From NCBI GenBank assembly GCA_027474245.1, contig CM049887.1:20687762-20751761 (forward strand): DNA of 64,000 nucleotides. Direction: 5' to 3'. A program made the position numbers and the translations under genes. Below, piece after piece: positions 40,779 through 62,925 of the stretch. The stretch is from Spheniscus humboldti. Lineage: Eukaryota. A model generated the notes under the pieces. It was not told where the DNA came from. It saw only the letters and a list, made by a program, of their open reading frames with translations, and searched no databases. Each line of letters begins with the position of its first letter. Positions within the stretch are counted from its first letter, which is position 1.

Positions 40779-40791
40779 TGTGTGTGTGTGT
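40779..40791. repeat. Short (TG)n dinucleotide run
   Basis: CTGTGTGTGTGTGTG. Confidence 0.8.
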
Positions 40792-41475: not shown

Positions 41476-42935
41476 ATCATAGAATCATTAAGGTTGGAAA
41501 AGACCTCTAAGATCATTGAGTCCAACCGTCAACCCAACACTACCATGCCCACTAAACCATGTCCCTGAGCACCTCATCTACAGGTCTTTTAAATACCTCC
41601 AGGGATGGTGACTCAACCACTTCCCTGGGCAGCCTGTTCCGATGTTTAATCACTCTTTCAGTAAGGAAATTTTTCCTCACATCCAATCTAAACCTCCCCT
41701 GGCACAACTTGAGGCCATTTCCTCTCATCCTATCGCTTGTTACTTGGGAGAAGAGACCAACACCCACCTTGCTACAACTTCCTTTCAGGTAGTTGTAGAG
41801 AGCGATAAGGTCTCCCCTGAGCCCCCTTTTCTCCAGGCTAAACAACGCCAGTTCCCTCAGCCGCTCCTCTTAAGACTTGTTCTCCAGACCCCTCACCAGC
41901 CTCGTTGCCCTTCTCTGGACACGCTCCAGCACCTCAACATCCTTCTTGTAGTGAGGGGCCCAAAACTGAACACTGTATTCGAGGTGCGGCCTCACCAGTG
42001 CCGAGTACAGGGGGACGATCACTTCCCTACTCCTGCTGGCCACACTGTTTCTGATACAGGCCAAGATGCCATTGGCTTTCTTGGCCGCCTGGGCACACTG
42101 CCGGCTCATGTTCAGCCGGCTGTCAACCAGCACCCCCAGGTCCTTTTCAGCTGGGCAGCTTTCCAGCCACTCTTCCCCAAGCCTGTAGCGCTGCATGGGG
42201 TTGTTGTGGCCGAAGTGCAGGACCCGGCACTTGGCCTTGTTGAACCTCATACAGTTGGCCTCGGCCCATCAATCCAGCCTGTCCAGGTCCCTCTGCAGAG
42301 CCTTCCTACCCTCGAGCAGATCAATACTCCCGCCCAACCTGGTGTCGTCTGCAAACTTGCTGAGGGTGCACTCAATCCCCTCATCCAGATCATTGATAAA
42401 GATACTGAACAAGACCGGCCCCAAAACTGAGCCCTGGGGAACACCGCTCGTGACCGCCCGCCAACTGGATTTCACTCCATTCACCACAACTCTCTGGGCC
42501 CGGCCGTCCAGCCAGTTTTCGACCCAGCGCAGAGTACACCTGTCTAAGGTGTGAGCCACCAGCTTCTCTAGGAGAATGCTGTGGGGGACAGTGTCAAAGG
42601 CCCTACTGAAGTCCAGGTAGACCACATCCACAGCCTCTCCCTCATCCACCAGGCGGGTCACCTGGTCATAGAAGGAGATCAGGCTGGTCAGGCAGGACCT
42701 GCCTTTCATGAACCTGTGCTGGCTGGGCCTGATTCCCTGGTTGTCCCGCTCATGCCTTGTGAGCGCCCTCAAGATGAACCGCTCCATAATCTTCCCCGGC
42801 ACCGAGGTCAGGCTGACAGGCCTGTAGTTCCCCGGATCCTCCTTCCAGCCCTTCTTGTAGATGGGTGTCACATTGGCAAGCCTCCAGTCGTCCGGGAGCT
42901 CCCCTGTTAACCAGGACTCTTGAGCACGTACTACT
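41476..42935 (-). mobile_element. CR1 LINE, 5'-truncated (RT domain to 3' end), minus orientation, in an RNF17 intron; reading frame broken by frameshifts
   Basis: Minus-strand ORFs 42269-42871, 41870-42250 and 41552-41845 together encode the CR1 RT (..[51 protein letters not shown]..) and the C-terminus. The 3'-end signature AGAATCATAGAATCATTAAGGTTGGAAAAGACC is at 41476. The copy is ~95% amino-acid identical to the copy at 60420-62925. Confidence 0.9.
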
Positions 42936-44356
42936 AGGCCTCCTCACTTTGAACATAAAGGAGAAGGGGCTGAAGAGTTACAGGTACAGGTGGCTATATG
43001 ACTACTAGAGAATGGTCTGAAAAAACTTGAAGCCATCAGTTATTCTCAAATTTCAGTATTCTTATGCCATATATTGGTTATGGTGAAACACTCTGGCAAG
43101 GTGTTTACACCTGAAGTTTGCGTAAGAAATAACTTCCTGTTGCTATTAGTTTTAATGCAAGTAATAGAAAGATCAGCAGGCTTCAGTCTGCTTATGTGTT
43201 GCTATGGTTTCAAATCTTTTCTATTTCAAAAAAAAATTTTAAGAATTTAAAATTCTTTGAAGCATGAATGAACACAAGGTTGCAAAATCAAGCATTCAGA
43301 AGGTAGGTTGTTTGTGCAACCTATTCTGTTGCATGTAAGCATTGGTAAGTCTTCACACATGATCACATATTGCATTGCCTCAAATGTAAGTTGGCTATTT
43401 AAGAGATTTGAATTAGGCTGTTACAAGAGAGGTCGGACTTTTTTCAGCCCGTTAATACAGTTTGCAGGCATTGTAATGGACTTGGATGGTGCAGAAATCT
43501 TGGCCAAAACTGGAATGAGCAGTGCTTAAGATGGTGTTGGTTTTGCATTCCACAGCCCTTTCTTTTAATGGTTATTTAACCTGTCAGTCAGTCTTACTTT
43601 CATATTCCCAACTGCCTGTATCCTAAGAATGTCTGCACAAAACATTCTTATTTCTATTGTCTTTATTTCCTTTCTCTCCCTTTACCCCCACCTGTGGTAC
43701 TCTTTCTTTTGATGCAATAAACAAGAAGGAGGAAACAATAACATTCACAGTTACTTTAAAATTGAGCCATAGTGTAACCACCAAAGTTTGCAATGAAGGT
43801 GCTAAACAGAAATTCTTTTAATCAAAGCACTTAATCTCATCTGATTTCCTGTGTGTCTCTTTTTTTATGTCTCCTAATCAATACCTTTCAAAAATCTGGC
43901 AGGAATTTTCTGACATAGGTACTGTGGTGCTCTGGTGTCTCTGTGTTTAGTCCTTCAGACTTCTACAATGGTATAGTCATGTTAATCTTAGATGCTTTGA
44001 TTCTGGGTTATTACATCATGATAAGCAAAACAGGATGAAGACTTTATTTACCACCTCTCTGCAGTAATCTTTCCTGATCTCTGCAGCCAATTCTATGCCT
44101 ACCCATAAAAGGAGGCAAGGAGAAGTAAGCTCTTTCTATTTCAGCAAGAATGTATCTGAATTTGAGGTTCATGCTCAGCTGCCGGCAGGGAGGGGGGATC
44201 ATCTGAAGGCAAATCAAATAATGGTAATGTGGAACGACAAGCCGAGGTCATGCTGTCTTGCTGTCCTGCATGAGTGCAAAGCAAAGGCTGTGATTTGGCT
44301 GTAATGAGATGGTCTTGATATGTGATGGTAGATACATAATTTGAGTTATTCTTTAG

Positions 44357-44477
44357 GCAATCAGGTGCAGGCTGGCTTTCATTGAGCCTTATAAAGGGGC
44401 AAATGAGTGGAACAGAGAAGCCAAGGAAAGATTTGAAGAAATGACTGAAGATAAACTTATGCTGTGTTCAGTTGTTG
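44357..44477 (+). CDS. RNF17: RNF17 exon (AIRCRLAFIEPYKGANEWNREAKERFEEMTEDKLMLCSVV)
   Basis: Acceptor TTCTTTAG| and donor TTG|GTAAGT. It aligns to human [40 protein letters not shown]. Confidence 0.9.
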
Positions 44478-45232
44478 GTAAGTTATCGAGAGTGTATTAA
44501 TTTATATTTAAATATTATTAAATTAATTCAGATGTAGAAACATGCACTTTCATATTTTAAATAGTATTTATTTGAAATGCCTATGTTCATGCTTATAACA
44601 GGTAGCCTGGAGCGAGAATATCTAAACATGAACTAATTGGAGGAGACATAACAGATATAACTTCTGACAAAAGCTCTGTTTATGTCTTCTCTTGCAGACC
44701 ACTCTAGCTTTACATGATACAAATATCCTAGTTTATTAAGATGGGCTTGTTTCCAAAAGTACTAGCTATCCTTGACTCCTTCTGACTTTATTGGTATCTG
44801 GGAGTGTGATTGCTGCTGCTTTAAAACATCGGGGGGGTGGGGGGGAAGTCAGCTAACACATACATGCCTTAGTAGGATTTTTCTCAATACCATTTATTGT
44901 TAATATGCAGCTAGTTATTTTTCAACACCTGTGGAATGGTCTAATAAATGACCATCTAATAAATTTCATCTAATAAATGAAATACATGTAGCAGTTGGTT
45001 TCTTTGTACAAAAATATTTTGTAATTGTTGGTGTATTTTAAGTTAATTTTATAGGTATGTGCAAAGCTAAGCCTCTACATATCGTTGATGTTCAGAATCA
45101 ATTATCTTATAAATCAAATGTAGTTTTACAAAATTCTGTCTCTTAGTACCATTTGCTGTGTCTCCAAAACCATAAATAGTCTTTATACTGTCATTGATTG
45201 GCACTAATTATGTTTATATTATTTATTCACAG

Positions 45233-45350
45233 AAATTTTAGATAATAACATCTTATCTGTTGAACTCTCTGACTCCTCTGCTGTTCATGGAAGAAGCTTT
45301 AGTATTAACTGCCAGCTAGTTAAAGAAGACTTAGCATCCTACATACCTGG
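45233..45350 (+). CDS. RNF17: RNF17 exon (EILDNNILSVELSDSSAVHGRSFSINCQLVKEDLASYIPG)
   Basis: Acceptor TTATTCACAG| and donor CTGG|GTAAAT. It aligns to human [41 protein letters not shown]. Confidence 0.85.
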
Positions 45351-46199
45351 GTAAATAAGCTGTGCATAACTTAAGCATTTAGAAATACTGAATTTGTGTA
45401 ACAAAATTACTGGCTTTAGTATGTCACCTCCAATGACTGGAATTTACCACATTTGTGATAAATTCATTACAAATCACATCCATCTACTGACATAAGTTAC
45501 AGAGTATAACTCTGCAGTTTGGCATACTTGAGTTCTCAAACAAAATCTTGACTAACATAATTTATTGAAATTGATTCAAAAGTTGATGAAATGTTTTGCA
45601 TCATACTTGTAATGTGGTTAAGTGCCAAATCTTCCCAAACTGATAATAGTTAAGGTTCCCGTTCTTTGTAATAAGAAAAGAAATATCACTTGTGTATTTA
45701 ACCTGCACCTAAGGTAAGTCATGTCTTTGGAAGGTCTGTTACTAGAAAACAGATACTCAGATAACCAGCTACAACAGTGACAGACAGAAGAATTGGGAAG
45801 CCTGCTGGGGGACATGAGGCTGGGAAGGAGATAACACTGCTGCATTTAATTTGCTGGCTTTTTAAAAAGATAATCCATGGGCTGTATTAATGAAAATCAG
45901 TAATTATTGTTTCATTAATAATTTTTGAATACTGATAAAAATAAAAAGATTGTTAAATAGAAAGTTTTGATTCCAAAAGGAAATGCCTGAATTTGCTTTT
46001 TTCAGGAGGAAGCAAATAAGTGGATTTTCATCTCTTAGCTCAGAAATATAACTAAACCCTAGTAACGCTTTTCTTGTACTAGTCACAATTTTTAGTAAGA
46101 TTTTCATAAAGTTAAGCAGCTTTATTTAAACCTGAACAGCTGAATTGTTTTGTCACTGTCAGTAGGGTATTTTGTTGTGTTGCAGCTATACTTAGATGC

Positions 46200-47130
46200 C
46201 TGCTTGCGGCCTGCAAACAAGTGGGTATGTTAACTTGAATAGAAGTTGCTGTGTAACACTGATAACTTTACTAATGTGGATTTTTTGGTCACTCGCTCAC
46301 TCCCACTCCCCCTTCTTTTGTTGGACTGGGAAGAAAATAGAAGAAACAGGAGCAAGAAAACTCATGGGTCAAAATACAGACAGGGAAATCGCTTACGAAG
46401 CGGCAAAACAGACTTAATTTAATTAAACGTAATTAATTACTAATTAGCATAAATATTTAATTACCGATTCAGGCATTGGGACACACAAGACAAACATTTA
46501 TAGCACCTACCCTCCCCCTTTCCCGGGCTCAACTTCACTCCAAGCACCCCTCCTCCCCCCTACTCTGCGGTTAACACTCAGTCCCTTCAGTGAGGCAGTG
46601 AGCAGTGCAGGGGGTTGGGGTCAGGACACAGCAATTCCTCCCCACTCCTCCTTCCTTCTTGCTCTTTTCTTCCTGTGCTCCGGCGGGCCCTCCACGGGCC
46701 TCAGTCCCCTCAGGAGTGTGCCTCTTCCTCCACAAAATACCGTCTACTCTTCTGACCTTGGTGTTCCTTATGTTATTTCTCTTCTGTTCCCTCCTCTTTC
46801 TCCCTGGCGTTTTCTGCCCTTCGTTAAATTAGAGGTGCCACCAGCTTCACTGAAGGGCTCAGCCATGTCCTGTGGAGAGTTTGTTGCAGAGACGGCTGAA
46901 ACAGGCTGTGTCCACCATGGGGCAGCACCTGGCTTCTCTCAGAGGTCACCCCTGCAGCCCCTCTCCCCGGCTACCAACATCTTGCCATTTACACCCAGTG
47001 CGCCGTGTCTTTTAGTTGGAGTGATGTTTCCATTTGGAGGGGGGGGAGGAGGGCTTGTTTTGGGGGGGGGTTTGGGGGGTTTTGGCTTGCTTTGTTCTCC
47101 AGTGTGCATAGGTCTGTAGCCCTCCAGAGC
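46200..47130 (+). repeat. Related LTR-like or unclassified repeat, copy C, inside an RNF17 intron; proline/glycine-rich low-complexity interior with G-rich homopolymers
   Basis: 46290-46440 (CTCACTCCCACTCCCCC...GGGAAGAAAATAGAAGAAACAGGAGCAAGAAAACTCATGGGTCAAAATACAGACAG...TTAATTTAATTAAAC) is homologous to copy A at 4300-4400 in the same orientation. The sequences diverge downstream. Confidence 0.35.
47036..47084. repeat. G-rich homopolymer cluster (GGAGG G8 AGGAGGG..T4 G9 TTT G6 TTTTGG)
   Basis: GGAGGGGGGGGAGGAGGGCTTGTTTTGGGGGGGGGTTTGGGGGGTTTTGG, inside repeat copy C. Confidence 0.9.
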
Positions 47131-48641
47131 TCATTTGTCACACTTTCTCACTGAATTTCCCATTTGTGAAGATGTCTGCAAAAAGGCAAGAGACGGGTGA
47201 ATAATTTAAACCTGTTTTAGGTCATTTAGAATCACATTTGGGTTATGATTACTCTTCCATGTTTAATGCTGTTGAGGGATACCCAGGCCAGCTCTAAACT
47301 AGTATAAGACAATATAAGCAGGAGAGCACAGTGCTCCATTGAAGCTGACTTGCTGACACACAAACTTCAGTAACCTTACTCTTGCATTGGGATAGGAGGT
47401 AGTCCATACAGAATTCCAGGAAAAACCTCGGAATCTGAAGTTCATTCCAAATTGATTGTTTTTTCTGATGGATCTGCAATGATAATGCTATACTGGAGTT
47501 ACTAGAGACGGGGTTGTAAGACATTAACATGTATTTCACTTGGGAGAACGCTCCATGGCAGATTGCCTCTGTCCATTTCATAGTTCAGACTAGTTGTATG
47601 CAAGGTAAGCATATTCATGAGCTATGGTTCTACAAGTTAGCTGTTTTACCCAGCAGTTTCCAAATATCTGTATCAGAAAGGTTTGCATAAATAATTTTGT
47701 AGCAGTATGTAGTAGATGATTCAATACTTTACGGAATTTTCTCTCTGACAGAGCAGTTTGTTTCCTTCCCGTGAAGGAAAAGACAGGTGGTAGATCTCTG
47801 GAAACAGAAGAGTTTCTTCCTGGAGGCCCAGAAATGGCCAGCAGTTAAACTCATGCTTGCTGTCTCCTTTAGTCAGTGATGTTTACAAGAAGCCAGTTCT
47901 TCTGCATTAACAGGTGGTTTTTCAAGCTGCAATCTCTTAGTCTAGTTGGCACAATTCACGCAGACTTATACTAAGCTGGGCTGTCGCTCAAAATACATAC
48001 CAGCCAACTCTTGATTGCTGGTGGGCTTTATTCTATCCAGGTCACACAGTTTAAACAAGTTTTCATCAGGGTATTATCATGACCATACTTCATTCAGTAC
48101 TCTACTTAGGAAAGTGCTAGCACCAGTTGTGTTTGTATCCGCAGGGAATGCTAGAAAGGTAAATGTTTCACTAATGTTAATATTCTTTACTTCTGAAAGG
48201 AATATTTACACATCTTAGAAGTTGAATGTTGCAGCTTTCACCCAGAGGCAACATTGATTTCCAGAAGCATGGTATTAGTAATTTGCTGTCTTTTAAGCCA
48301 GATACAAAGATTAATGTTCAGCAGCCCATTTGTGTCAGGCTTGCTTTTCTGCTGGCAGCCTATATTGTGTAGTGCTTTCACCTATCAGTAGAATGTGCAA
48401 GGATACCTTCTGAAGGAGAATAAAAATAAGTTATGATCTTGAGTGTTTCAGAAGTAGCATTTAGAAATATTTTTGTCTTTTGTTGGGATTTTTTTTCTGC
48501 TTTTCTAAGTTATTGGTTATTCTTCACTCATCTTCATGTTGAATGATTCCTGTCATGTTGAACTGTGATTATTGAGCTCTTTTTCACTTCGTTTAAAATG
48601 TGTTTAAACTTTCCATTCTAATTATTTTATGCTCTTTACAG

Positions 48642-48863
48642 GTACGCTGAAAGTACTGTTGTAAGGCCCAATGAAATATGGGATGTTCCTCTAGAAGACA
48701 TTCCTGAATCCTCGGAAGCTTTAAATCCTATAGACATGGAATATGTGGATGAAGGAGATTTCAAATCACTTTCTAAGAAAGAGCTACAAGTGAGAATTAG
48801 TCATGTTGTGTCTCCCAGTAAGATTTTTATACAGTGGCTGTCATCAGAAAGTATACTGAAAAG
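48642..48863 (+). CDS. RNF17: RNF17 exon, start of Tudor 3 (..IWDVPLEDIPESSEALNPIDMEYVDEGDFKSLSKKELQVRISHVVSPSKIFIQWLSSESILK)
   Basis: Acceptor TCTTTACAG| and donor AAAAG|GTACTA. It aligns to human ..[64 protein letters not shown]. Confidence 0.85.
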
Positions 48864-49837
48864 GTACTAAAATTCAAAGAACTTTTCTCGAGTTAAGGCA
48901 TTCTTACTACAAACTGGTGAAGTACAAGTAGAACAAACTCTGATTAGGGTTGCATTTGGCACTGGGTACTCACTTGAATGCTGTTGACTTACCTTGCTTT
49001 GTTGAGGAAAGTATAGGAACAGAAGACAGATTGGGACTATGTTGTGGTTTATTAAATATTTGTGATTCCAAATTAAGTACATGATCTAACTTCTATTTCA
49101 AATCAGTTTTAATGTAGTAAGTATTGGGGCCTGATAAACGCAACGCTGCCCAGAAAGATTAAATCTTTCTGCTCTTTCTTCCTATTCTTTCATTAGAAAT
49201 CGTGTTAAATAATACTAGTATCCTAAGTCATAGAACTTCAAGCAAGTTATTTCTTTCAACATGATTCTAATATGCTGTTAGGAAAGTTTGCAGGCAATTT
49301 CTAGACATAGAGTTATCAACCTTCCTTTGGTTACCTAAGTATCTACTTAGGTAACATTTAGGTAATAGTGCGTACTGTTTGAAGACACTTCAATGGAATT
49401 ATCATTGCTTAGTGCAAGTTGGGTGTTTTCTGCCTCTTACTTCTTTCTTTCTTTCATGTTTTTACCTTCTTGCATGTAGCTACCTAGAGTCCCATTGAAT
49501 TAGTCATGACACTAAATGAGTACCACGCTCTCAATTTGTCGAGAGAAAATAGTGCATCTTTCAAATAGTGCTATACAGAAGGGTCAGGATCGCTCAGATT
49601 AATTCTGTTGTTTAAGAAAACATGATAGTTTTACAGAATGTTAATCAGATTGTATGTGTTTTGAAGCTCCATTTCATGCATTTCTAACATGACATGTAGA
49701 AAAACTACAATACTGTATGTCGGTTTAAACAGTTCCTAAAACTTCACTGTATGCTAGTTAAGCAGTAATGGACTAAATAAACAGTGTATTCACGGGATAA
49801 AATTTTATCACTAGAAAAGTGTTTTTTTGAATGTTAG

Positions 49838-49988
49838 TTTACAGGAGAAGATGGCTACCATCTACAAAGAATCCCAGCCACAGTCCATGAAGTGGGAAGA
49901 TAGTATGCACTGTGCTGTTTACGTACGTGATTTGAAACAGTGGCAAAGAGGTCAAATAAGCAGGATTGTCTCTGAAACAAGTGCAGAG
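49838..49988 (+). CDS. RNF17: RNF17 exon, Tudor 3 (SLQEKMATIYKESQPQSMKWEDSMHCAVYVRDLKQWQRGQISRIVSETSAE)
   Basis: The acceptor is GAATGTTAG| at 49836-37; this upstream AG is the one that keeps the frame, because the AG 7 nt downstream would create a stop. The donor is GAG|GTAAAC. It aligns to human [51 protein letters not shown]. Confidence 0.8.
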
Positions 49989-51124
49989 GTAAACCTGTTA
50001 TCATAAGAGGGTTCATACTTTTATTTCTAAAATTTGTAAGCATTCATTGATTAAAATAATGTCAAATCTTTGCTTCTTACTTCTGTGTTAATATTTTCTC
50101 ATACAGCCTTTTGCTTTTGTTGAGAGTTTAAGTTATGTTGTACATTGCTGCAAATAAGATTACTGTCTCATCAAAGCTCAGATGCCGTTAGCAGGGAACT
50201 TGGTAGTTGAGGAAGGCTCATGAGACTTTGTGTATGTTTATACTACACTTTGCAGCATAGCACAGATTCCCAAGCTATAGCCTAACAGTTTAGCTTAAAT
50301 TCCAGAAGCTGTATGAACCTGACGGTCACGTTAATTCAAACTTAATGATCCTTGCTAAAAGATGGAGCCAGTTGAACTGAGTGCAGCACCACAGCCACAC
50401 AGGTAGTCAAGCTGTTGCTTAAACCCTAAACTGATGGTGATGCACTGTGCCATGTAGGTGTAACATTTTCCACTGTAACTTCTCACACAGTGCTGCTTTA
50501 AACATGCGTTTTGTTACACTCACTTGAAAAGGGGAAGGAACATTAGAAGTGGCATTTTGTGAATAGATAACTACTTACCGCAAAAGTAAGAGTGGCTTTT
50601 TAATCATACAGATAATCCAGGACTGGATTACCATTGGTTCTCTCCACCATCATCAGATTATGCCCATGGGTCTTGTTAGTAGGAAGCAGAAGTGGGACTT
50701 TCTATACTTCTGGTTTGCATCATCTGCTTTCTAAAGCTAAGAGCTCTCAAACAGCTATTTAACCATGTCAGAATAAAAAGCAAGGGGTGGAGAGGAGCTA
50801 TTTCAGCATTTCTAGGTTTACAAATTTAAATGCACCAACATAACTGATGCAGGGGAAAAGAAATTTTCTTACTCAAGTAACAGCCTCTGTAAAGTTGTTT
50901 AACCCCCTTTGAGCACATTTGTGTGTTTTGTCCTCTTGGTACGCTGTGGTAGTCATTTGCGCTGTGTGACGGAGTACTTCAGTGCAAAGGCCATTCATTG
51001 AATCCTGGTGATGTTTGTTTGAATTTTGTTTACCTATTCAGGCATGCTTTGAATTACAGTTGGTTACAGATAACACTAAGAGTGTGTAGGGGGTCTGTTC
51101 CATTGTGTTTCTTGTCTGTAACAG

Positions 51125-51243
51125 GTGATACTTTATGATTCTGGAGCTGAAAAAACAGTGGATATCAGCTGTCTAAGAAAACTTGAGGAAAATATGAAGA
51201 TAATTAGGACATTAGCAATAGAATGTTCCTTGGCAGATATAAG
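51125..51243 (+). CDS. RNF17: RNF17 exon, Tudor 3 ([39 protein letters not shown])
   Basis: Acceptor TCTGTAACAG| and donor TAAG|GTAGCC. It aligns to human [39 protein letters not shown]. Confidence 0.85.
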
Positions 51244-52024
51244 GTAGCCTTTCCCTTATACTGAGTAGCAGTATTAGAAACCTAATAATTACATAACTTA
51301 ATATTTTCCTGTCTTAGCACTGATTATCTAAGATTTGGATGTGGTTTGCTTTTTGAATAAAGAAGAAATGGGATGGTGGCTGTGATTTGTTTTATAAAGG
51401 CTTTTTTTTCTAAGGATTATGCTACATACTAGTAAAGCAGAAACCATGCTATAGAAAGAAAGAATATTTATAGGATGAATTATAAAATACTGGACAGATG
51501 ATAGAGGTTTTTCTTATTTCACTGAATGCTTTTTTCCTTGGCTCAGAATTTGAGATTAATTAAATCTCATGAAAATGCACAGGAGGTCTCTCTTTTCTAG
51601 ACTGTAGAAAAGAAAGAGAACCAGGGTATTCGCCTGTGCATTTGTTTGTGTGCTGTCTATACTGTGAAGAAAAAATAATCATGTTTGTAATACCTATTCC
51701 CTGAATGAATATAAAAAGCCCAATTTGCAGATGAAGTATGGATTTTCCTTTGTTCTGCTAAGACAGGTGTCATATTTCCAGAACTCATGATCCTTCTCAG
51801 TTTTGAAGTTTTGGGGTTATATTTTTGAATTCTTCCTGTTGTATGGATCCAGAGATGAATAACCATTTCTTTTTACTGTTGACTGTAATGGAGATTCTTT
51901 TTTCCCTGACAGTACAGGCAGTTTCAAAAAAATCAAAGCTCAGTAAAGGGAAGGGTTTGTGGTTAAGCTCAGGAGATGCCAACTTCTGTTGTACTAAAGG
52001 AGATTATAATTTGTTCTATGTTAG

Positions 52025-52115
52025 ACCAACAGGTGGAAGCACGCAGTGGACAGCAACAGTGTGTGAATGTTTATCCTATTACTTAACGGGGGCACAAGTA
52101 AAAATAATGATACAG
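52025..52115 (+). CDS. RNF17: RNF17 exon (RPTGGSTQWTATVCECLSYYLTGAQVKIMIQ)
   Basis: Acceptor TATGTTAG| and donor CAG|GTTTGT. It aligns to human [31 protein letters not shown]. Confidence 0.85.
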
Positions 52116-52968: not shown

Positions 52969-53084
52969 GAAAGTGATGTGGCTTGTGCATTGCCTGTGAA
53001 AATCCTTTGCAAAGATGAAACAGGACAATTGATTGATATTTCAGAACACCTTATTAAAAAGGGCTTGGCTTTTAGAAACAGAAG
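52969..53084 (+). CDS. RNF17: RNF17 exon (ESDVACALPVKILCKDETGQLIDISEHLIKKGLAFRNR)
   Basis: Acceptor T11CCAG| and donor GAAG|GTTTGG. It aligns to human ..[37 protein letters not shown]. Confidence 0.85.
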
Positions 53085-53406
53085 GTTTGGATACTTTCAT
53101 TTTTATATTCTTTCAGACTCTCATATTCACATCTTGATAAGCTAGTAAGTAAAACAAAAACTTGGATTGTCCTTTACAACATGTAGCATCAGAACTCCAT
53201 CTTCAGTGAACTTATTTAACATTATTAATTGTATCCACTGCACGTTTCAGTTCTCTTAAGTTGGTAGATGAGATGATTGACAATATTTTAACAAGCATTT
53301 GCCATCTTTGTGTGTTTGGTTTTTTACTTGCTATTATTTTATTCTTCTGCATTTTCCAAGTTCTTTATCAGTTAATATGTTGATGTGATTTGATTGAATC
53401 TGCTAG

Positions 53407-53711
53407 AACTGATAAAGCTGGTGTGGCTTGCTCAGTCTCCAAGGAACATCTTAAAGTACATTTAGAGCAAGAGAACACACAACTGGATGGTTGTAATTCA
53501 GAAACACGTGCAAAAACCAGCGCTGCTCCAGAAGAAAACATCACTGTTTCAGAGAGTGAACAAAAATCATTGAAAACATATAAGGCACTGCTTCATTCAG
53601 GAATGGATGAAATATATAAATCCCCCATTATACCTGAAGCGAAAATTTTTCAAGCTGTAGTAAGTTGCGTTGGACGTGATGGAACTATTTATATAATACC
53701 AAAATCATTTG
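53407..53711 (+). CDS. RNF17: RNF17 exon, linker plus start of Tudor 4 (RTDKAGVACSVSKEHLKVHLEQENTQ...PIIPEAKIFQAVVSCVGRDGTIYIIPKSF)
   Basis: Acceptor TCTGCTAG| and donor TTTG|GTAAGA. It aligns to human ..LEVPLEQEDSV...[30 protein letters not shown]. It is the largest exon in the window, at 305 nt. Confidence 0.85.
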
Positions 53712-54960
53712 GTAAGATTACATAGAAGAAAATATGTTTATGTCTATGAATGTGATAGGTTTGGTATATCAAAAGACACCAGATACATGGTCCAGTATAC
53801 ATGTTCTGTATCAGATCACAATTCTGGAATATTCCTGTTGGGAGGATTGCTGTTGGGAGGGAATGAGGCCTTTGGCCTTGGGGGGCGAGGGGTGCGTGCC
53901 CGTACACCCCTTTCTCTGCAGCAGTGGGGAGAGGTCCCGCAGCTTCCCGGCAGAGGAAACCCAAATCCCCAGGAGGTGGTGCCCTGTCCTTAAGCCCATC
54001 AAAACCAGCTCTCCTGTCCTTCCACCTGCCCAAGAAACCAAAAAACCCCAAGCACTTGGATGGGCAGGTTACCTGCCTCTCTTCTCTAGGCAGTATTGGG
54101 TAAAGCAGCAAGTGCTTTATTTTACAATGTTGAGATTGTGATACATTTTACTAATAATAACGAAGATACAGTCCTAAAGATTCTTAGAAATTAGCCTGGT
54201 TCTCAAATATTACTGGATTTTTTTCCTTCAGTGTGAGCTCAGTACCCAGTTTCCTTGGGCTCTTTATTTGTACTATGATAGATTAAGAAATATTCTCTTA
54301 ATATTTTCTGTTTATACTGTCCGAAAGAGGTACATTTGCATCAGAGGTACACTGCACAGATGCAGTGTCAGTCTTCAGTACCATGATCATATATTGTGCT
54401 TTAGAGAAATGTTTCCATATGAGAACATTTTATTTTTTTTTTTTACTCTACAAGTGCATTCAACTTAGATCATATCATGAAACTTTGAAATTCAAAGTAC
54501 AGTAACCCCACTTGCCCAAGACTGTATTCTTCTTCCAGTTGTTGCTGTAGACCGTACCCATAGCAGAAGAGGGTCTTCCGGACACCTGTTTTGTGTTATT
54601 TTATGGTGTCCTACCACTGTCTCTGGGAATCTGTTGTCTTGTTCAGGGGGAGGCTTTTGTGTTAGTGCTGCCAAGGTGTCAACTGCAAAATTTATAGACC
54701 CTTCTTCACTGAGATTAGAATCCAGAATTACTAATGGCTTCACAACGGGAAGTGCAGTTTACTTTTTGTTTAAGAAGTAACTTGTTTGCATATACTAGAA
54801 GTTGAACATACATATTCTATCAGTATTGGAAAACATTGTTTTGGAGCAGCACATGTATTTTATGTTTATACATGTCTGCATCTGAATCTGCTGGGTTTTA
54901 GTGATTGAAATAGTTTGTGCTAATATGTTACAGGCTATTTTGAATTTTTTGTATTCTGCC

Positions 54961-54972
54961 CCCCCCCCCCCC
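54961..54972 (+). repeat. RNF17: C12 homopolymer forming the polypyrimidine tract of the exon-54975 acceptor
   Basis: TTCTGCCCCCCCCCCCCCAG|AAATCG. Confidence 0.9.
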
Positions 54973-54974
54973 AG

Positions 54975-55138
54975 AAATCGAACTAAACAAATTGATGACT
55001 GAAATACAAAGTAACTTCAAATGCCTTGGTCTTCTGGAACCCTACTGCTGGAAAAAGGGAGAAGCTTGTGTTGTAAGAGGATCAGATACCATGTGGTATC
55101 GAGGTAAAGTTGTAGAACCTGGTGGTAGTACTCTCCAG
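54975..55138 (+). CDS. RNF17: RNF17 exon, Tudor 4 ([55 protein letters not shown])
   Basis: The acceptor is preceded by a C12 homopolymer (54961-54972), and the donor is CAG|GTAAGT. It is near-identical to human [55 protein letters not shown]. Confidence 0.9.
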
Positions 55139-55155
55139 GTAAGTTTGATTATATG

Positions 55156-55170
55156 GTGTGTGTGTGTGTG
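55156..55170. repeat. (GT)n dinucleotide microsatellite, ~8 units, 18 nt downstream of the exon-55138 donor
   Basis: GGTGTGTGTGTGTGTGCATG. Confidence 0.85.
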
Positions 55171-55961
55171 CATGAACATGTGCACATGTATGTAAAAAAA
55201 AGGGGGGGGAGGGGCGAATAATCTAATCCTCTAAAATAAACTTATGATCACACCTACTTTTGTTCAGCTGACCTGACTGTCCAGATGCTCATTCTGCTTA
55301 AAAGTGTGATAACTGTCCTGATTTTTACGTTTATTTTAAAGATGAATTCTGTCTGCCTATTTCAGTTGTCACAATTTTTCCCATAGTTTTCCTCATGATG
55401 ATAAATGTTCTTAAGTAAAAAGCTACCCTTGATCACCTGTAAGTAATCCCTTTTAGGTTTTTTCTTCTTTTGTTGTTGTTGTTATTGTATGTGGAATGCT
55501 TTGAAAATACTTAAGTTAACTTCCCCCCACTCTAGCTCCACCCAGAAAGTAATGACTGTTTGGTTTAAATTCTTTCTGCTGCACAGGTATAGAGCTACTT
55601 TTTCTAATTAGCAGTTAATCTTATGTAAACTCTTGAGTCTGCTCATGCTTTTTGAATGTAGATTTGCAAGTCTGACACTGTCCTAGTTCACAAATGTTTT
55701 ATTTCTTTCAATTTTAAACTGCTGTAGGTTATTACACAAAAGGTAGGTTCTCTTGCAAGACAAGTTTAGAAACCGAACTTCTAATCTGCCATACCAGTTC
55801 TTGAATCCTTTCCTTCATTTCCCCTTTGTCACATCACCTACTTATCAGCAAACCGTTATTTTTTCCTCCAGAAAAGTGAATGCTGTAAATGGATGCTTTC
55901 TCTTATTAAACTTGACTTGAAAAACAGGAATTATTTCAGGAAAGCTTTTCTTTTCATACAG

Positions 55962-56081
55962 GTACAGTACATAGACCATGGTTGCATAGAGAGGATTCCT
56001 CAGTGTCATCTGTATCCAACTACATTGTATACTGCTGTTCCTCCGTTTTGCATACCATGTCAGCTCTACAAGACAGTACCA
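55962..56081 (+). CDS. RNF17: RNF17 exon, Tudor 4 ([40 protein letters not shown])
   Basis: Acceptor TTTTCATACAG| and donor CCA|GTGAGT. It aligns to human [40 protein letters not shown]. Confidence 0.9.
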
Positions 56082-57142
56082 GTGAGTAATGGGAAATTTG
56101 AAGACGTTTTAGTAGGTAGTTACTCAAATCGATACACTGGTCATACAAAGGTTGAGACTAGTTGCTGGTATTTTTTCTTGCCTATGAGGATTTAGAGAGT
56201 AGCTGATGAGGATCATTTCACCAAGGCAGCCTTTTATCAGGAAATGCCAGATTGCTTTATGAAGTGACCATGCTTCTAAAGCAGCTGTCATTGGAATTAA
56301 ATCTTTGTAAGACAGGACACTGCAGTAGTTGGCAGGATGATACTCTGAAGTGGTAGTTTGTTGTGCAATAGCAGCAACAAGAAGTAAGGCCTGGATTTCT
56401 TAATGCAAAATGGCCAGAAAATTGTAAATCTTCAAGTCCTGCAAAAGTGTTTCTATCATTCTGAACTTAGCTGTGTGGGAAACACTCTGTTATGCTAAAC
56501 TAATACAAGTGAATTGTTTTAGGGGGTTTTTTTAGTAAGTAATTGATACCTGAATAACATCTTCACATATCATCGCATCTTATTCAAATTTGAATGCTGC
56601 GTTTAGTAAATGTGAATTACTGGAATGACTAGCTTACTTTTAAACTTATTTTTAAATAAAACCTTTTTATTGCTCGAAGCAGTTCAACTGATAGAATAAG
56701 AAAGACAGGCTTATAAGCCTGCGGGTTGGGAAGCAAACAGATACTGCAGGGAATAAAAGTAGTATTTAAAGTATCCTGTGTTTTCTGATGTCTGTTAAGT
56801 TATCTTCAAGTGTAATTCTGTATCTTTGGGTTATGCTTCAGGTAATTGTGCACACATACATTATTATGTATATAGTAAAGATTAGACTTGGCAAGCAGCA
56901 TCTCTTTCTAAGCCACTTCAAGATCTTGAAATTGTTGGTCGGCTTTGTCACACAGTAAGTTTTAGTGTACCAAATAGCAGATAATGTTTAAACTGTTGTA
57001 GACAAATCAAACTAATGCTGTGTGTTTTCAAATAAGTTTTTCAATGATAGGCACATGTTTTCATCTTACTATGTTAAGAATAGTAAGACTATTACTTGTC
57101 AGCATCTTAATGTGTGGGGGTTTCTTGCTTTTCACCAAATAG

Positions 57143-57223
57143 ATTGGAAATTTTTGGCAGCAGGATGCAGTAGATTGCCTTCAAGAACTACTTACAAATG
57201 AAGAGGTTGAAATACATGTTCAG
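57143..57223 (+). CDS. RNF17: RNF17 exon (IGNFWQQDAVDCLQELLTNEEVEIHVQ)
   Basis: Acceptor CACCAAATAG| and donor CAG|GTAGCT. It aligns to human [27 protein letters not shown]. Confidence 0.85.
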
Positions 57224-57880
57224 GTAGCTTAATTTATTCATAGATGTGGAATGAGGCTTACTTTTTGTTCTCTTTTTTTTTTTTTTCCTTGCATTAAGAA
57301 TCACAGGTGAAGGAGTATAGCAGTAAATATATTTCTTAGACAAAACAAAATCCAAAGCTATAGTTGTTTCTCCTGTGACTTTACCTTTATTATATTTTTC
57401 AGGCCTTAAGCATGTCCTTTAGAGGTATTAATATTTTTTGGTCCTGTTTGTATTCTTTGTTGTCATTCTGAGAAGCAACCTATCTACTAACAGCATAAAT
57501 TCTTCTAAATTCAATTTTAAGTTACTAAAATCTGGCATAATTAAGTATGGACATGCTTAAATTAATATATTAACATTATTGGGAAACACATAATCTGTAT
57601 TTTCTGAAAACCTGCAGTTTCAGATAGTTTAATTTCTAATGATAAATTGTGAAAGAGAAGGGTTTATTGTTAAGTGAGTAAACATGGGATAATGTGCTGC
57701 CATTTCAGAGATATATTCCCATTTGTGTCATAACTGATGTTAATAGCCACCCTTACTGGTTTTGTATCTTTGATGAATATGGTGCATATAGGAATGACAG
57801 GTTTGAATTTCCTGGTCACTATTTCTAAAATCTCAGTCACGCTATTACTGTTAGAATCTTATTTTGTCTTGTGTAAGTAG

Positions 57881-58006
57881 GAATTGCCAGATAACCCATG
57901 GGGCAAATTGTCCATCAGCCTGTATTTTGGTGGAATGTCGCTTTCTTCTTTCATGGCATACCAGAAGTACTGTGTTGCTGAAGATTGTCAGGACATATCA
58001 GAGCTG
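57881..58006 (+). CDS. RNF17: RNF17 exon ([42 protein letters not shown])
   Basis: Acceptor GTGTAAGTAG| and donor CTG|GTGAGA. It aligns to human [40 protein letters not shown]. This is the last exon I could place; the gene continues past the window. Confidence 0.85.
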
Positions 58007-60419
58007 GTGAGATTTTTTGTGCGTGTGTGCGTGTCTTTTGCTGTTGTTATTCTGACATTAAAAAGATTACTCAGTTGCTTGTTGTGACCTTTGAGGATTT
58101 ATTTCTTTTTGTATTTCTGTACAGTTTTGTGATATAAACAGCAGTAAGACTAAGTACACAGCTCTGTAGTGTAACAAGTGTAGATACAATGTGTTGATAA
58201 GATTGTATGGAATAGCAAATTGCCAAGAGTTTGTTCTTGGACTCCTTACTGAAAAGAGATTTTTGCATTTCTATTTAAAGTCCAATTAGTTTTTGTGTTC
58301 CTCTAAAATTTAAAAGGACAGGAATAGGTAATGTTTTTATCACTTGAAGGGATTACTTAATCATAGAAATATATCCAAGGATGGAGATACTCAAAAGTAA
58401 AGTTAATCAAGTATTTCAACATAAACCTAGTGATTTCTAAGGGAGTTACCTAGGTTCTTCATTCCAAGTGTCTGGGATATTCATGTGGTGCTGGTGTTCT
58501 TTAGAGGAGGATTGAAATTTTCACCAAACTTCATTGTCTTACCACAAAAAAAATTAGATAAGTAATTTCTCTGTTGTTTTTTTTTTTTTTTCCTTGAAAT
58601 CTGAGGATCAGGTTTCTGTAAATTACTAAGGCTTTGTTGTTGTGTTTTTCTCTTTAATTCTGTTTAAGCCTGCCAATGTATTTTTCTTTCCAACATGAGT
58701 TTCTGCTTCAGAAAATAATTTTACAATACAGAGTACGCTGCTGCCACTGCTGATGTAAGTCTTGGCATGTATACCAGCGGACTTGTGATGCAGTTACAAA
58801 AATCTCTCAGTGTGTATTAGAACTGAGTAACCATGGAAAACCTAACTGTAAATCAGTGTCTTCTTGCATTTTCATAAAGTCAGCACATGACACACAACTT
58901 CCAGTGAACTAAATATGGATCTTGAAATGAGATTGTACCCTTAAAAGAAAAATGAAATTTGGAAAACAAAAATAAAGCCATGTAAGAAGGTTGTAAGCAA
59001 GAAGCATTGAGGAAAACCTGGAATGCTTTCAGCAAGGAATATAGCATTAAGCAGATCCATTCCAGGAATAAGTGGCTCAGAACAATTCATAAGACAATGA
59101 ATATTGGAGGTGTTCAGATGTGGACCAGAAAAGGAGCAAGGGGTCCAGAGCTCAAGCTGGTTCCAGGAGCAGAACCTCTGGAATAGCAGAAGTAGGAAGC
59201 ATGCAGCTCTGAGAACATTGAAACATAATCAGCTCTGGGTTTAGCTGTAGAGGCTAAGCAGCCATCCTCACAAGCCAACTGATACACTGCATTGACTAAA
59301 GGATACTATTATTATACAAAGTATAGCCATTATATATTTTATTATTTTATAGTTTTGTAACTTTATTTCATTACTTCAGATCTGTGTTTTCAGGTAAGTA
59401 ATCTGATAAGGACTGTATTCTGTTTCTGTGAGTGTTGTAATTCTGTTAATAGTGGTAATAAGCTGCTTATGCAGAGCCCACTACACCTGTGTCTTGCTGC
59501 AGAGTGTATTATTGTCTTTGAGATGCAGTTCTGCTGAGCTGCGCAGGTGAGTTTAGGAGCTGGCCTTGGTTACCATATGACAATCCTAGCTTAGTCATTA
59601 GCTAGAAAATTCCCTAGTGGACAGTAGGATATTGGAGAGTATACCAGAACCCCAAATGTGGTGAGCTTACAGCAATGAATCTCATTCTAGGTGTATGTGT
59701 ACATATATGTGTGTTCATGTGTATACACATACGCACTTGCATACTTACCTATATATACAACACCATTATACTGTGGTATTTTTTGATTCGGCTTTTTGGG
59801 AGATGGGGTTGTTTGTTTGTTTTCGTTTGTTTCTCTGCCACTGTGAGTCAGAACCAAGTAGGCAGGTGCTGCCTTGTGCTCACACATTCAGGCATGGGGG
59901 ACTATGACCTTGCTTCATTTGACAGACAAGTTTTTAATCTCTTCATTCTGAGCTCAGGCTTAACTAACAATAATTTTTAGAATTACTTTTTCTACAGCAG
60001 TTGACTACAAAGCATTTCCAAACATCTGAACCAAAATCAGTTAAAAATTCCTTATACAGGCTATTTTTTTGTATTTAACTGCATTGCATATCAGCCCCTT
60101 TACAGTGAGGTACTTGAAGTCTTCAGTTTTTAAGCTCATAATCTAAGCGAACACTTGGCCAGACTGCTCCACCTTAATCCACCCCGGGAAATGCCAGTGC
60201 TGTTTTTTTGGAATATATTAGTTTGGGTCAGAGGAGAGATGCACTTCAAACTGCTGTTGACATACCAGCCATATTCATTCAATTAGCACCTGCCTTCTGA
60301 ATGACAGCAAAGACAATGCTGAAAAGACTTCATGCAAAGCCATTTTGTAGTCATCTGAACACTTTCAGCATCACCAGGAGCTGTTCAACCTGCCAGCAAT
60401 TCTAGAGAGAGATCACTGT

Positions 60420-62925
60420 CTTTTCAAGCAGAGAAATCTTTAGGCAGAAGCAGCAGCGTACAAAGGGCTAATTCCTCCTCCTCTGATTTCAACTTCCTGG
60501 ACATCTGCTGGAAATACAACACAGCAGAGAGGAAGCAGGCTAGGAGGTTCCTGGGGTGTGTGGAAGACAACTTCCTGACGCAGCTGGGAAGTGAGCCTAC
60601 CAGGGGAGGTGCCTCGCTTGATCTACTGTTTACAAACAGAGAAGGACTGGTGGGAGATGTGGTGGTTGGAGGTCATCTTGGGCTTAGCAACCATGAAATG
60701 GTAGAATTCTCGATTCTTGGTGAAGTAAGGAAGGGGGCCAGCGAAACCGCAACCATGGACTTCCGTAGGGCGGACTTTGGCCTGTTCAGGACGCTGGTTG
60801 AGAGAGTCCCTTGGGAGACGGTCCTGAAGGGCAAAGGGGTCCAGGAAGGCTGGACATTCTTCAAGAAGGAAGTCTTAAAGGCGCAGGAGCAGGCTGTCCC
60901 CATACACCGTAAGAAGAACAGGCAGGAAAGGCGACCGGCCTGGCTGAACGGGGAGCTCTTGCTGGGACTCAGGAAAAACAGGAGAGTTTACCACTTGTGG
61001 AAGAAGGGGCAGGCGACCCAAGAAGAGTACAGGGATCTCGTTAGGTCGTGCAGAGAGGAAATGAGAAAGGCAAAAGCCCAGCTAGAATGCAGTCTGGCCG
61101 CTGTCGTTAAGGACAACAAAAAAAGTTTTTACAAATATATTAATGACAAGAAGAGAGCCAAGGAGACTCTCCATCCTTTATTGGATGCGGGGGGGAACAT
61201 TGTCACCGAGATTGAGGAAGAGGCTGAGGTACTCAATGCCTTCTTTGCCTCAGTCTTTAACAGGCAGACCAGTTATCCTCAGGGTACTCAGCCCCCTGAG
61301 CTGGAAGACAGGGACAGCGAGCAGGATTAACCCCCCATAATCCAAGAGGAAGCAGTTAACGACCTGCTACGCCAACAGGTTGCTCATAAGTCTATGGGGC
61401 CAGATGGGATCCACCCGAGAGTGCTGAGGGAGCTGGCGGAGGAGCTCACCAAGCCACTCTCCATCATTTATCAGCAGTCCTGGTTAACGGGGGAGGTCCC
61501 GGACGACTGGAGGCTTGCCAATGTGACGCCCATCTACAAGAAGGGCCGGAAGGAGGATCCGGGGAACTACAGGCCTGTCAGCCTGACCTGGGTGCCGGGG
61601 AAGATTATGGAGAGGTTCATCTTGAGGGTGCTCACAAGGCATGTGCGGGACAACCAGGGAATCAGGCCCAGCCAGCACAGGTTCATGAAAGGCAGGTCCT
61701 GCTTGACCAACCTGATCTCCTTCTATGACCAGGTGACCCGCCTGGTGGATGAGGGAGAGGCTGTGGATGTGGTCTACCTGGACTTCAGTAGGGCCTTTGA
61801 CACTGTCCCCCACAGCATTCTCCTAGAGAAGCTGGCGGCTCATGCCTTAGACAGGTGTACTCTGCGCTGGGTCAAAAACTGGCTGGACGGCCGGGCCCAG
61901 AGAGTTGTGGTGAATGGAGTTAAATCCAGTTGGCGGGCGGTCACGAGCGGTGTTCCCCAGGGCTCAGTTTTGGGGCCGGTCTTGTTCAATATCTTTATCA
62001 ATGACCTGGACGAGGGGATCGAGTGCACCCTCAGCAAGTTTGCAGATGACACCAAGTTGGGTGGGAGTGTTGATCTGCTTGACAGTAGGAAGGCTCTGCA
62101 GAGGGACCTGGACAGGCTGGATCGATGGGCCGAGGCCAACTGTATGAGGTTCAACAAGGCCAAGTGCCGGGTCCTGCACTTCGGCCACAACAACCCCATG
62201 CAGCGCTACAGGCTTGGGGAAGAGTGGCTGGAAAGCTGCCTGGCGGAAAAGGACCTGGGGGTGCTGGTTGACAGCCAGCTGAACATGAGCCAGCAGTGTG
62301 CCCAGGCGGCCAAGAAGGCCAATGGCATCTTGGCCTGTATCAGAAACAGTGTGGCCAGCAGGAGTAGGGAAGTGATCGTGCCCCTGTACTCGGCACTGGT
62401 GAGGCCGCACCTCGAATACTGTGTTCAGTTTTGGGCCCCTCACTACAAGAAGGACGTCGAGGTGCTGGAGCGTGTCCAGAGAAGGGCAACGAGGCTGGTG
62501 AGGGGTCTAGAGAACAAGTCTTATGAGGAGCAGCTGAGGGAACTGGGGTTGTTTAGCCTGGAGAAAAGGAGGCTGAGGGGAGACCTCATCGCTCTCTACA
62601 GCTACCTGACAGGAGGTTGTAGCAAGGTGGGTGTTGGTCTCTTCTCCCAAGTAACAAGCGATAGGACGAGAGGAAATGGCCTCAAGTTGTGCCAGGGGAG
62701 GTTTAGATTGGACGTGAGGAAAAATTTCTTTACTGAAAGAGTGGTTAAACATTGGAACAGGCTGCCCAGGGAAGTGGTTGAGTCACCATCCCTGGAAGTA
62801 TTTAAAAGACATGTAGATGAGGCGCTCAGGGACATGGTTTAGCGGGCATGGTGGTGTTGGGTTGACGGTTGGGCTCGATGATCTTAGAGGTCTCTTCCAA
62901 CCTTAATGATTCTATGATTCTGCAT
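60420..62925 (+). mobile_element. CR1 LINE, 5'-truncated (EN C-terminus, linker, full RT, 3'UTR), plus orientation, in an RNF17 intron
   Basis: A continuous frame runs from ~60360 to 62842. It encodes the CR1 ORF2 motifs (..SDFNFLDICWKYNTAERKQARRFLGCVEDNFLTQ..LDLLFTNREGLVGDVVVGGHLGLSNHEMVEFSI..) and is interrupted only by a single in-frame TAA at 61328-61330. The 3'UTR ends with the ATTCTATGATTCT repeat at ~62911-62925. The 5' boundary is approximate. Confidence 0.9.
61394..62842 (+). CDS. Intact 482-aa reverse-transcriptase plus C-terminal segment of CR1 ORF2 (pol-like)
   Basis: A 482-codon ORF with RT motifs ([16 protein letters not shown]; [13 protein letters not shown]; FADDTKL; the C-terminal [17 protein letters not shown]) and no internal stops. 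It lies in the same frame as the upstream EN-linker segment 60560-61330, separated from it only by the TAA at 61328. Confidence 0.85.

Follow-up and report, generated by a model that had tools for sequence, protein, structure and literature searches.

In one gene of the Humboldt penguin, Spheniscus humboldti, two introns each contain a copy of a CR1 retrotransposon. The copies are closely similar and oppositely oriented, and the locus raises the question of how such a pair arose and whether it affects the RNA of the gene that carries it. In the window, the whole stretch of 64,000 nt analysed here, the host gene is identified by its exon matches as RNF17 (TDRD4), on the plus strand. The joined exons matched “RING finger protein 17” of many birds, with 71% full-length identity to Apaloderma, the exons within 53642-58006 were 100% identical to RNF17 of Eudyptes filholi and E. 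chrysocome, and the exons 49838-49988 and 51125-51243 matched PDB 2eqk (Tudor domain-containing protein 4) with E = 2.7e-23. The named RNF17 proteins were retrieved with a 589-aa concatenate of exons, and a 115-aa query of two exons returned only Logan fragments. The exon map was made by tblastn with the RNF17 proteins of Apaloderma (P0130) and Eudyptes filholi (P0157), followed by placement of GT-AG and frame-consistent boundaries. Twelve coding exons were mapped on the plus strand between the two CR1 copies (44357-44477, 45233-45350, 48642-48863, 49838-49988, 51125-51243, 52025-52115, 52969-53084, 53407-53711, 54975-55138, 55962-56081, 57143-57223, and 57881-58006), which span 44357-58006 and total 1,734 nt, in frame. 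Both the host gene and the enclosed exon block named in an earlier note on this DNA were borne out by this map.

The pair is by far the strongest repeat in a self-BLAST of the whole window. BLASTN aligned 41473-42918 (minus) with 61476-62921 (plus) as a single ungapped inverted match of 1,446 nt with 95.85% identity (60 mismatches, 0 gaps, E = 0), and an inverted-repeat search returned arms at 41473-42923 and 61471-62921, each 1,451 nt long, 96% complementary and 18,547 nt apart. The identity of the arms is accordingly about 95.7-95.9% over about 1,450 nt. The pairing arm of copy B (61471-62921, plus strand), reverse-complementary to copy A, shows 62 differences over 1,451 nt, comprising 47 transitions and 15 transversions, with 27 of the 62 at CpG. 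The earlier note had described two inverted CR1 copies of about 95% similarity in RNF17 introns, which this match confirmed, and identity and length both lay well above the values, 85% and 300 bp, below which it had regarded pairing or recombination as implausible. Its separation of 17.5 kb was right when measured from element to element (17.6 kb), and the homologous arms are 18.5 kb apart. The peptide quoted there from the antisense ORFs of both copies was found at 42581-42910 (plus) and 61484-61813 (minus).

Copy A (41473-42918, minus strand) is a LINE truncated at the 5' end, about 1,446 nt long as defined by BLASTN and by empty sites, which runs from the reverse transcriptase (RT) to the 3' end and lies antisense to RNF17 inside the intron 40534-44356; the empty site corrected its earlier limits of 41476-42935. 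Pfam RVT_1 was detected in its ORF 42269-42871 (E = 8.5e-31), and its 5' end falls inside RT. Copy A had been taken as frameshifted, which proved wrong, since it is collinear with copy B with zero indels and what interrupts its frame is a pair of stop codons, both nonsense substitutions. The long antisense ORFs opposite the RT frame, such as the one of 262 aa at 41642-42430, are probably a composition by-product of the GC-rich coding strand. The sequence contains a 3' microsatellite tail of ATGATTCT in two units (41473-41488, minus), and the alignments of older CR1 3' fragments at 29290-29408 and 31251-31370 to copy A end at 41469-41476, thereby marking the same element end as the tail. The orthologous site was found without copy A in three birds (L004, L002, and the trogon Apaloderma vittatum, L008). 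In L004 the empty site reads GCAGTTCTT followed directly by GAGCAC, whereas the window reads AGCTCTT, the CR1 copy, and then GGACTCTT before GAGCAC, and the L004 BLAST segments flanking copy A overlap by 4 nt (L004 5276-5279). This empty-site comparison placed the left copy of TCTT, a 4-bp target-site duplication or microhomology, at 41469-41472 and the right copy at 42918-42921; the latter shares one base with copy A as delimited here, an overlap due to an uncertainty of about 1 nt in the boundary.

Copy B (60489-62921, plus strand) is likewise a LINE truncated at the 5' end, about 2,433 nt long as defined by homology and by its empty site, and lies sense to RNF17 inside the intron starting at 58007; its presence in this intron stood, and its start moved from 60420 to about 60489 with the end at 62921. 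It carries one reading frame at 60489-62839 with a single stop at 61328-61330, the open stretch starting upstream at 60359, and within this frame lies a 482-aa ORF (61394-62842). Pfam RVT_1 was detected with E = 5.8e-35, and a Pfam search of 60359-61327, the 5' part, found no domain; the 5' end of the copy falls within or after the endonuclease region. At the amino-acid level copy B is 86-88% identical to CR1 ORF2-like proteins of Mycteria and Grus. The 3' microsatellite tail, again ATGATTCT in two units (62906-62921, plus), is preceded by a GGTTGG...CCAACC hairpin region. Copy B is absent in the diving petrel Pelecanoides urinatrix (L007), in which the empty site reads CTCTGATTCT followed directly by TCATGGAC; since GATTCT at this target site matches the octamer, up to 6 nt of ambiguity attach to the 3' junction of copy B. 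The copy is present in Eudyptes filholi (L006). The corresponding Apaloderma intron is too diverged for alignment past window position 58358.

By their sequences, both copies are assigned to one subfamily of CR1 LINEs. They are 96% identical to each other versus about 88-90% to the nearest CR1 nucleotide copies retrieved, from Mycteria americana and Grus japonensis, and the proposal of a single subfamily is upheld by this difference. At E <= 1e-30, 7,981 protein matches were obtained, headed by Mycteria americana and Grus japonensis RT-domain proteins (86-89% identity), the closest proteins being CR1 ORF2-like ones from stork and crane. Both copies finish with CCAACCTTAATGATTCTATGATTCT, which consists of two octamers of the ATTCTRTG type. 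The reverse transcriptase, the octamer tail, the kinship to CR1 ORF2, and the hallmarks of target-primed reverse transcription (a fixed 3' end, 5' truncation at differing points and an unoccupied site in relatives) were all found. A GGUUGG/CCAACC-based 3' hairpin was predicted in both copies with z = -0.3 and -1.05 relative to shuffled sequences, an energy no better than that of shuffled sequence, and it was not retained as a significant structure. A full-length or intact, potentially active CR1 was rejected too, as no intact ORF with endonuclease and RT is present and both copies are truncated and carry stops.

Among the repeats of non-passerine birds CR1 dominates (Galbraith et al. 2021, PMC8665684). 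It is the dominant transposable element of birds in general, and its copies there are mostly 5'-truncated (PMC8665684, PMC4700946), with more than 90% of chicken CR1s under 1 kb (Kuramoto et al. 2015, PMC4700946). The two copies resemble bird CR1 in the RVT_1-bearing ORF2, the octamer microsatellite with the 3' hairpin region and the 5' truncation (PMC8665684, PMC4700946), as well as in the minimal target-site duplication and the clean presence or absence between related lineages. At 1.4 and 2.4 kb, copies A and B are longer than most CR1s and otherwise show no material difference from them. Their closest known relatives appear to be the CR1 subfamilies of the waterbird and penguin lineages, including, as far as that source indicates, those of Watanabe et al. 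(2006, Gene 365:57).

How the two copies came to resemble each other is very probably explained by two independent retrotransposition events of one CR1 subfamily on the penguin lineage, which left 5'-truncated products in opposite orientations in two RNF17 introns. Their insertion is considered independent because the truncation points, the flanks and the empty sites all differ. Target-primed reverse transcription from the 3' end would have made each copy, which would account for the common 3' terminus, the unlike 5' truncations and the very short microhomologies at the target sites. Two copies could also be made alike by a segmental duplication in inverted orientation or by gene conversion, and the 96% identity with no indels across 1,446 nt agrees with such an origin; it is nevertheless highly improbable, given that the homology stops exactly at the shared CR1 3' end and at the truncation point of copy A (B 61476), with copy B reaching about 1 kb further, and that other birds show a clean empty site for copy A and, separately, one for copy B. 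No homology was seen between the flanks of A and B beyond the element ends, and the 5' truncation points are not identical. Nor were gene-conversion tracts seen in the A/B alignment, in which the mismatches are spread evenly (4-10 per 145 nt) and the longest runs of perfect identity are 125 and 117 nt, the former within random expectation (P = 0.20).

The distribution of the independent insertions among birds bears on their dates. The E. filholi locus is 97.6% identical to the window and collinear over 43631-61166 and 62715-64000, with an intronic divergence of 2.4%. For copy B, presence and absence date the insertion directly: it followed the petrel split and preceded the separation of the window species from Eudyptes. 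Since copy B is shared with E. filholi, it predates the split of these two penguins, and a species-restricted or polymorphic insertion was rejected for this copy. Copy A presumably inserted on the penguin lineage, the comparison loci beginning at window positions 43631 (E. filholi, about 700 bp past copy A) and 46156 (petrel, about 3 kb past it). The subfamily had been called recently active, a description that did not hold, since copy B is common to a species 2.4% diverged and both copies are truncated with stops.

Polarisation of the A/B differences with the stork and crane CR1 copies assigned 29 derived changes to copy A (20 nonsynonymous, including both stops, and 7 synonymous) and 19 to copy B (7 nonsynonymous and 9 synonymous). 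The nonsynonymous share was 59% overall, as compared with about 70% expected under neutrality. Copy A shows a neutral pattern in its substitutions and, judging from the 29 versus 19 counts with 14 sites left unpolarised, is probably the older one; the source element of copy B was probably a slightly later one. Both copies appear to have decayed since as non-functional intronic DNA. The alignment of the two copies contained zero indels in 1,446 nt, versus about one gap per 11.5 substitutions in the flanking introns against E. filholi. This lack of indels fits the account less well; part of the divergence may have accumulated in a selected source lineage, the non-repetitive indel rate may be low, or errors in the draft assembly may contribute.

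At the RNA level, since both arms lie in one pre-mRNA, pairing of these 1.45-kb stretches over the 12 exons between them is possible in principle. The predicted energy of the A/B duplex was -3071 kcal/mol, compared with -475 and -581 kcal/mol for the separately folded arms. The long dsRNA stem proposed earlier is thus thermodynamically plausible, but its formation goes beyond the prediction. If the arms pair, the likeliest outcomes would be low-level back-splicing, giving a circular RNA in which 58006 is joined to 44357, and A-to-I changes within the duplex; we only infer this circularisation or editing step.

The pair might go further and serve as a working cis-element: pairing of the two introns would bring donor 58006 next to acceptor 44357, giving a penguin-specific circular RNF17 RNA of 12 exons (1,734 nt) or skipping of these exons in frame, so that RNF17 output in the testis would be modulated. 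The arms do lie in both flanking introns, copy A 1.4 kb upstream of the acceptor and copy B 3.5 kb downstream of the donor, their duplex is predicted to be far more stable than either arm alone, and a search of window positions 38-64 kb found no rival inverted repeat of at least 40 nt. Such a mechanism has been established for mammals, and in chicken CR1-overlapping reverse-complementary matches have been reported to promote circRNA formation (reviewed in PMC12658333). As in circularisation by human IRAlu and by the CR1-overlapping matches of chicken (PMC12658333), long reverse-complementary repeats occupy the introns on both sides of an exon block whose splice sites are canonical, and the duplex is very stable. 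Typical short-range pairs are more favourably placed, for in the penguin the block contains 12 exons over a genomic span of 13.6 kb, with 18.5 kb separating the arms. RNF17 pre-mRNA of human can itself back-splice, since several circRNF17 isoforms occur in testis with circles of exons 2-6, 3-6 and 4-6 (Dong et al. 2016, PMC5153637); these exons are other than the mid-gene, Tudor-domain exons enclosed in the penguin, and the repeat families are unrelated. Against a working element, 11 normally spliced introns lie in the 18.5 kb between the arms and co-transcriptional splicing would usually win. A nearer partner could compete for copy B, since the 3' end of a minus-oriented CR1 abuts an assembly gap of the E. 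filholi locus, 3.9 kb past copy B in the next intron and beyond the window. There is also no sign of constraint on pairing, with 62 mismatches and neutral-looking decay, and petrels do without copy B. A working element is doubtful on these grounds, and it is likewise unlikely that the CR1 pair, brought together on the penguin lineage only, gives this lineage a circular RNF17 RNA of its own with 12 exons in frame, an isoform that skips these exons, or hyper-edited dsRNA in the testis. There is no indication of selection on the arrangement; it is what old insertions, independent of each other, ordinarily leave behind, and it shows no sign of function.

Such a pair had also been put forward as a substrate for inversion by ectopic recombination. 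This is possible in principle, as inverted repeats of 1.45 kb with 96% identity can serve as substrates for non-allelic homologous recombination; yet about 130-230 bp of uninterrupted identity is the length usually cited for efficient recombination in mammals, and the longest run here, 125 nt, falls below this. The E. filholi locus is collinear with the window over both aligned intervals. An inversion would flip 12 RNF17 coding exons, and as male Rnf17 mutant mice are sterile (PMC4511215), it should be quickly removed by selection. Non-allelic homologous recombination is thought to shape avian genomes (PMC8665684), but an 18.5-kb inversion segregating or fixed in some penguins is hardly to be expected.

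The tie once drawn between the pair and the role of RNF17 in transposon control found no support in the data. RNF17 works in the piRNA pathway in mouse testes (PMC4511215), and its penguin pre-mRNA holds both CR1 strands, from which it might be supposed that the sense/antisense intronic pair is a germline source of dsRNA for CR1-directed small RNAs, linking transposon control to a piRNA-pathway gene. We give next to no credence to this supposition, which is purely circumstantial: introns are nuclear and short-lived, CR1 fragments occur throughout the window, and the subfamily gives no sign of current activity here, with both copies truncated and carrying stops. Since CR1 is dominant in non-passerines (PMC8665684), inverted intronic copies in long genes would be unsurprising.

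The locus is of little wider import; it reveals no new mechanism, and nothing ties the pair to transposon control by RNF17. Copies A and B are clean, datable CR1 insertions usable as presence/absence markers, copy B being penguin-specific relative to petrels. The locus may also offer a test, supplied by nature, of back-splicing driven by repeats in birds. If the pair did drive a circular RNA, penguin and petrel, which lacks copy B, would stand to each other as natural knock-in and knock-out in a test of how transposons give rise to circRNAs in birds.

BLASTN comparison of the two CR1-bearing regions gave a sole match, inverted and ungapped, between 41473-42918 and 61476-62921, with 95.85% identity over 1,446 nt (60 mismatches, 0 gaps). 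The same pair was recovered by a repeat search as arms at 41473-42923 and 61471-62921, which were 96% complementary over 1,451 nt and separated by 18,547 nt. In a self-comparison of the whole window, no pair of similar strength was present, and apart from each other the arms matched only short remnants of old CR1 3' ends, located at 29.3-29.9 kb and at 31.25-31.37 kb. The repeat formed by copy A (minus strand, 41473-42918) and copy B (plus strand, 60489-62921) is genuine and well above chance expectation. The two highly similar inverted CR1 copies described in the earlier note were thereby confirmed, and the peptide it quoted was found in the antisense ORFs of both; its coordinates held in substance, with small corrections to the copy limits.

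Translation of each copy in a single frame gave the reverse transcriptase and the C-terminal part of CR1 ORF2, with the Pfam domain RVT_1 matched at E = 5.8e-35 in copy B and E = 8.5e-31 in copy A, while no endonuclease domain was recognisable in either copy with Pfam. Among database proteins, the best matches, at 86-89% identity, were annotated as reverse transcriptases from Mycteria americana and Grus japonensis. Both copies ended at the 3' side in ...CCAACCTTAATGATTCTATGATTCT, which represents the amniote CR1 octamer twice, and a GGUUGG/CCAACC hairpin was predicted before the octamers in both, with a stability not significantly above that of shuffled sequence. In copy B a single frame could be followed from the 5' end at 60489 as far as 62839, interrupted only by the stop codon at 61328-61330. 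No indel separated copy A from copy B, so what interrupted the frame of copy A was a pair of nonsense substitutions rather than the frameshifts of the first reading. Both copies are 5'-truncated and dead. At least three further CR1 fragments were present in the window, older, short and more weakly related to copies A and B (52-65% amino-acid or 77-83% nucleotide identity), at 3673-4001 and 29406-29858 on the minus strand and at 31251-31370.

Exon-like ORFs on the plus strand encoded Tudor domains, and two neighbouring exons matched a Tudor domain of known structure from human TDRD4, an alias of RNF17 (E = 2.7e-23). The concatenated peptides of 12 exons matched "RING finger protein 17" in dozens of birds in a protein search; the partial Eudyptes filholi and E. 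chrysocome proteins were 100% identical, and the Pelecanoides urinatrix protein 96%. RNF17 begins at about 17.8 kb and extends past the window end. The sole CpG island of the window (GC >= 0.55, CpG observed/expected >= 0.6), located at 16801-17600, a short distance 5' of the first coding exon of RNF17 (17805-17900), is probably the RNF17 promoter. Protein-guided GT-AG boundaries placed copy A within the intron 40534-44356 and copy B within the intron starting at 58007; in E. filholi, the exon that follows is reached about 7 kb downstream. The 12 exons between the copies (44357-58006) total 1,734 nt (578 codons) in frame, so skipping or circularising them would preserve the reading frame; an in-frame total has a one-in-three likelihood by accident.

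Other features were observed around and within the gene. A second inverted repeat, upstream of RNF17, paired 4268-4880 with 6064-6653 in five collinear blocks of 84-91% complementarity; each arm measures about 600 nt, and about 1.2 kb separates the two. This repeat could represent a foldback element or a different transposon present twice in inverted orientation. A GC-rich block at 53700-54150 in an RNF17 intron was open on both strands over 140-150 aa; neither the petrel nor another bird locus, L001, aligned to a portion of it (about 54420-54815), and the block may be another lineage-specific insertion.

Comparison with orthologous bird loci showed that the copies inserted separately. The E. 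filholi locus (L006) was 97.6% identical to window 43631-61166, which indicates that the source was a penguin of a species other than E. filholi. Homology between A and B stopped on one side exactly at the common CR1 3' terminus and on the other at the truncation point of copy A, with copy B running about 1 kb further 5'. The empty site of copy A in locus L004 read ...GCAGTTCTT followed by GAGCAC..., and in the window copy A stood between ...CTCTT and ...TCTT followed by GAGCAC, a 4-bp duplication; copy A was also absent from locus L002 and from the trogon Apaloderma vittatum. For copy B, the diving petrel (P. urinatrix) showed the empty site, ...CTCTGATTCT followed by TCATGGAC..., and the window the filled site, ...CTCTGATT[copy B ...ATGATTCT]GCATGGAC, from which the limits 60489-62921 were set. 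The target site of copy B resembled CR1's own octamer, which would fit microhomology-assisted target-primed reverse transcription. E. filholi carried both ends of copy B with an assembly gap between them, and since the petrel site was empty, copy B was inserted after the penguin-petrel split and before the split of the window species from Eudyptes. Penguin-petrel intronic identity was about 88-89%.

The copies differed at 62 of 1,451 sites (47 transitions and 15 transversions, 27 at CpG). When stork and crane CR1 copies were used to polarise the differences, 29 proved to be derived in A (7 synonymous; 20 nonsynonymous, among them both stops) and 19 in B (9 synonymous, 7 nonsynonymous), and 14 could not be assigned. 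Nonsynonymous changes made up 59% of differing codons, where neutrality would predict about 70% (P about 0.02-0.03). These small numbers suggest that copy A is older and decayed neutrally and that copy B descends from a source element of somewhat later date, in which case part of the divergence may have arisen under selection in the active lineage. Such selection would help to explain the total absence of indels among the 60-62 substitutions, compared with about one gap per 11.5 substitutions in the flanking introns against E. filholi, and the missing indels are accounted for only partly. Gene conversion between A and B left no sign in the mismatches, which were evenly distributed, with a longest uninterrupted identical run of 125 nt that was unremarkable (P = 0.20). 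Given the dating and divergence of the insertions, "recently active" was not an apt description of the subfamily.

Recombination between the copies had been proposed to invert the interval. The E. filholi locus, from the only other penguin assembly examined, was collinear with the window on either side of copy B, indicating no inversion between the two penguins. Unbroken identity between the arms reached 125 nt at most. Rnf17 mutant mice are sterile (PMC4511215), and an inversion would flip 12 RNF17 coding exons; an inverted allele should therefore be lost.

Pairing of the arms is thermodynamically possible by prediction: the inter-arm RNA duplex was modelled with 1,411 base pairs at -3071 kcal/mol, compared with -475 and -581 kcal/mol for the arms folded singly and about -800 kcal/mol for shuffled controls. 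Back-splicing driven by intron pairing is established in mammals. With arm A 1.4 kb upstream of acceptor 44357 and arm B 3.5 kb downstream of donor 58006, the layout has the geometry that this process would use. In chicken, the same mechanism is reported in a review for reverse-complementary matches overlapping CR1 (PMC12658333), and human testis contains circRNF17 isoforms made from other exons (PMC5153637). Several observations speak against a meaningful effect of pairing: the arms span 18.5 kb with 11 ordinary introns inside, both copies show neutral-looking decay, copy B is missing from petrels, and in E. filholi copy B has a possible nearer partner in the next intron. There, 3.9 kb past copy B and outside the window, the intron that follows the next exon (21524-21637) contains a minus-oriented CR1 3' end (L006 23175-23433), 94% identical to copy B and abutting an N gap (23434-25244); this end may belong to a third long member of the subfamily and offer copy B a closer pairing partner. 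An effect of the paired arms is physically possible but unsupported, as are the functional suggestions of the earlier note generally, while its identity, orientation and genic context stand.

RNF17 restrains PIWI activity (PMC4511215, PMC10040813), and nothing in the data supported a tie between this role and the CR1 arrangement. In non-passerine birds the dominant repeat is CR1 (PMC8665684), and copies A and B are two old CR1 insertions of an ordinary kind that arose independently.
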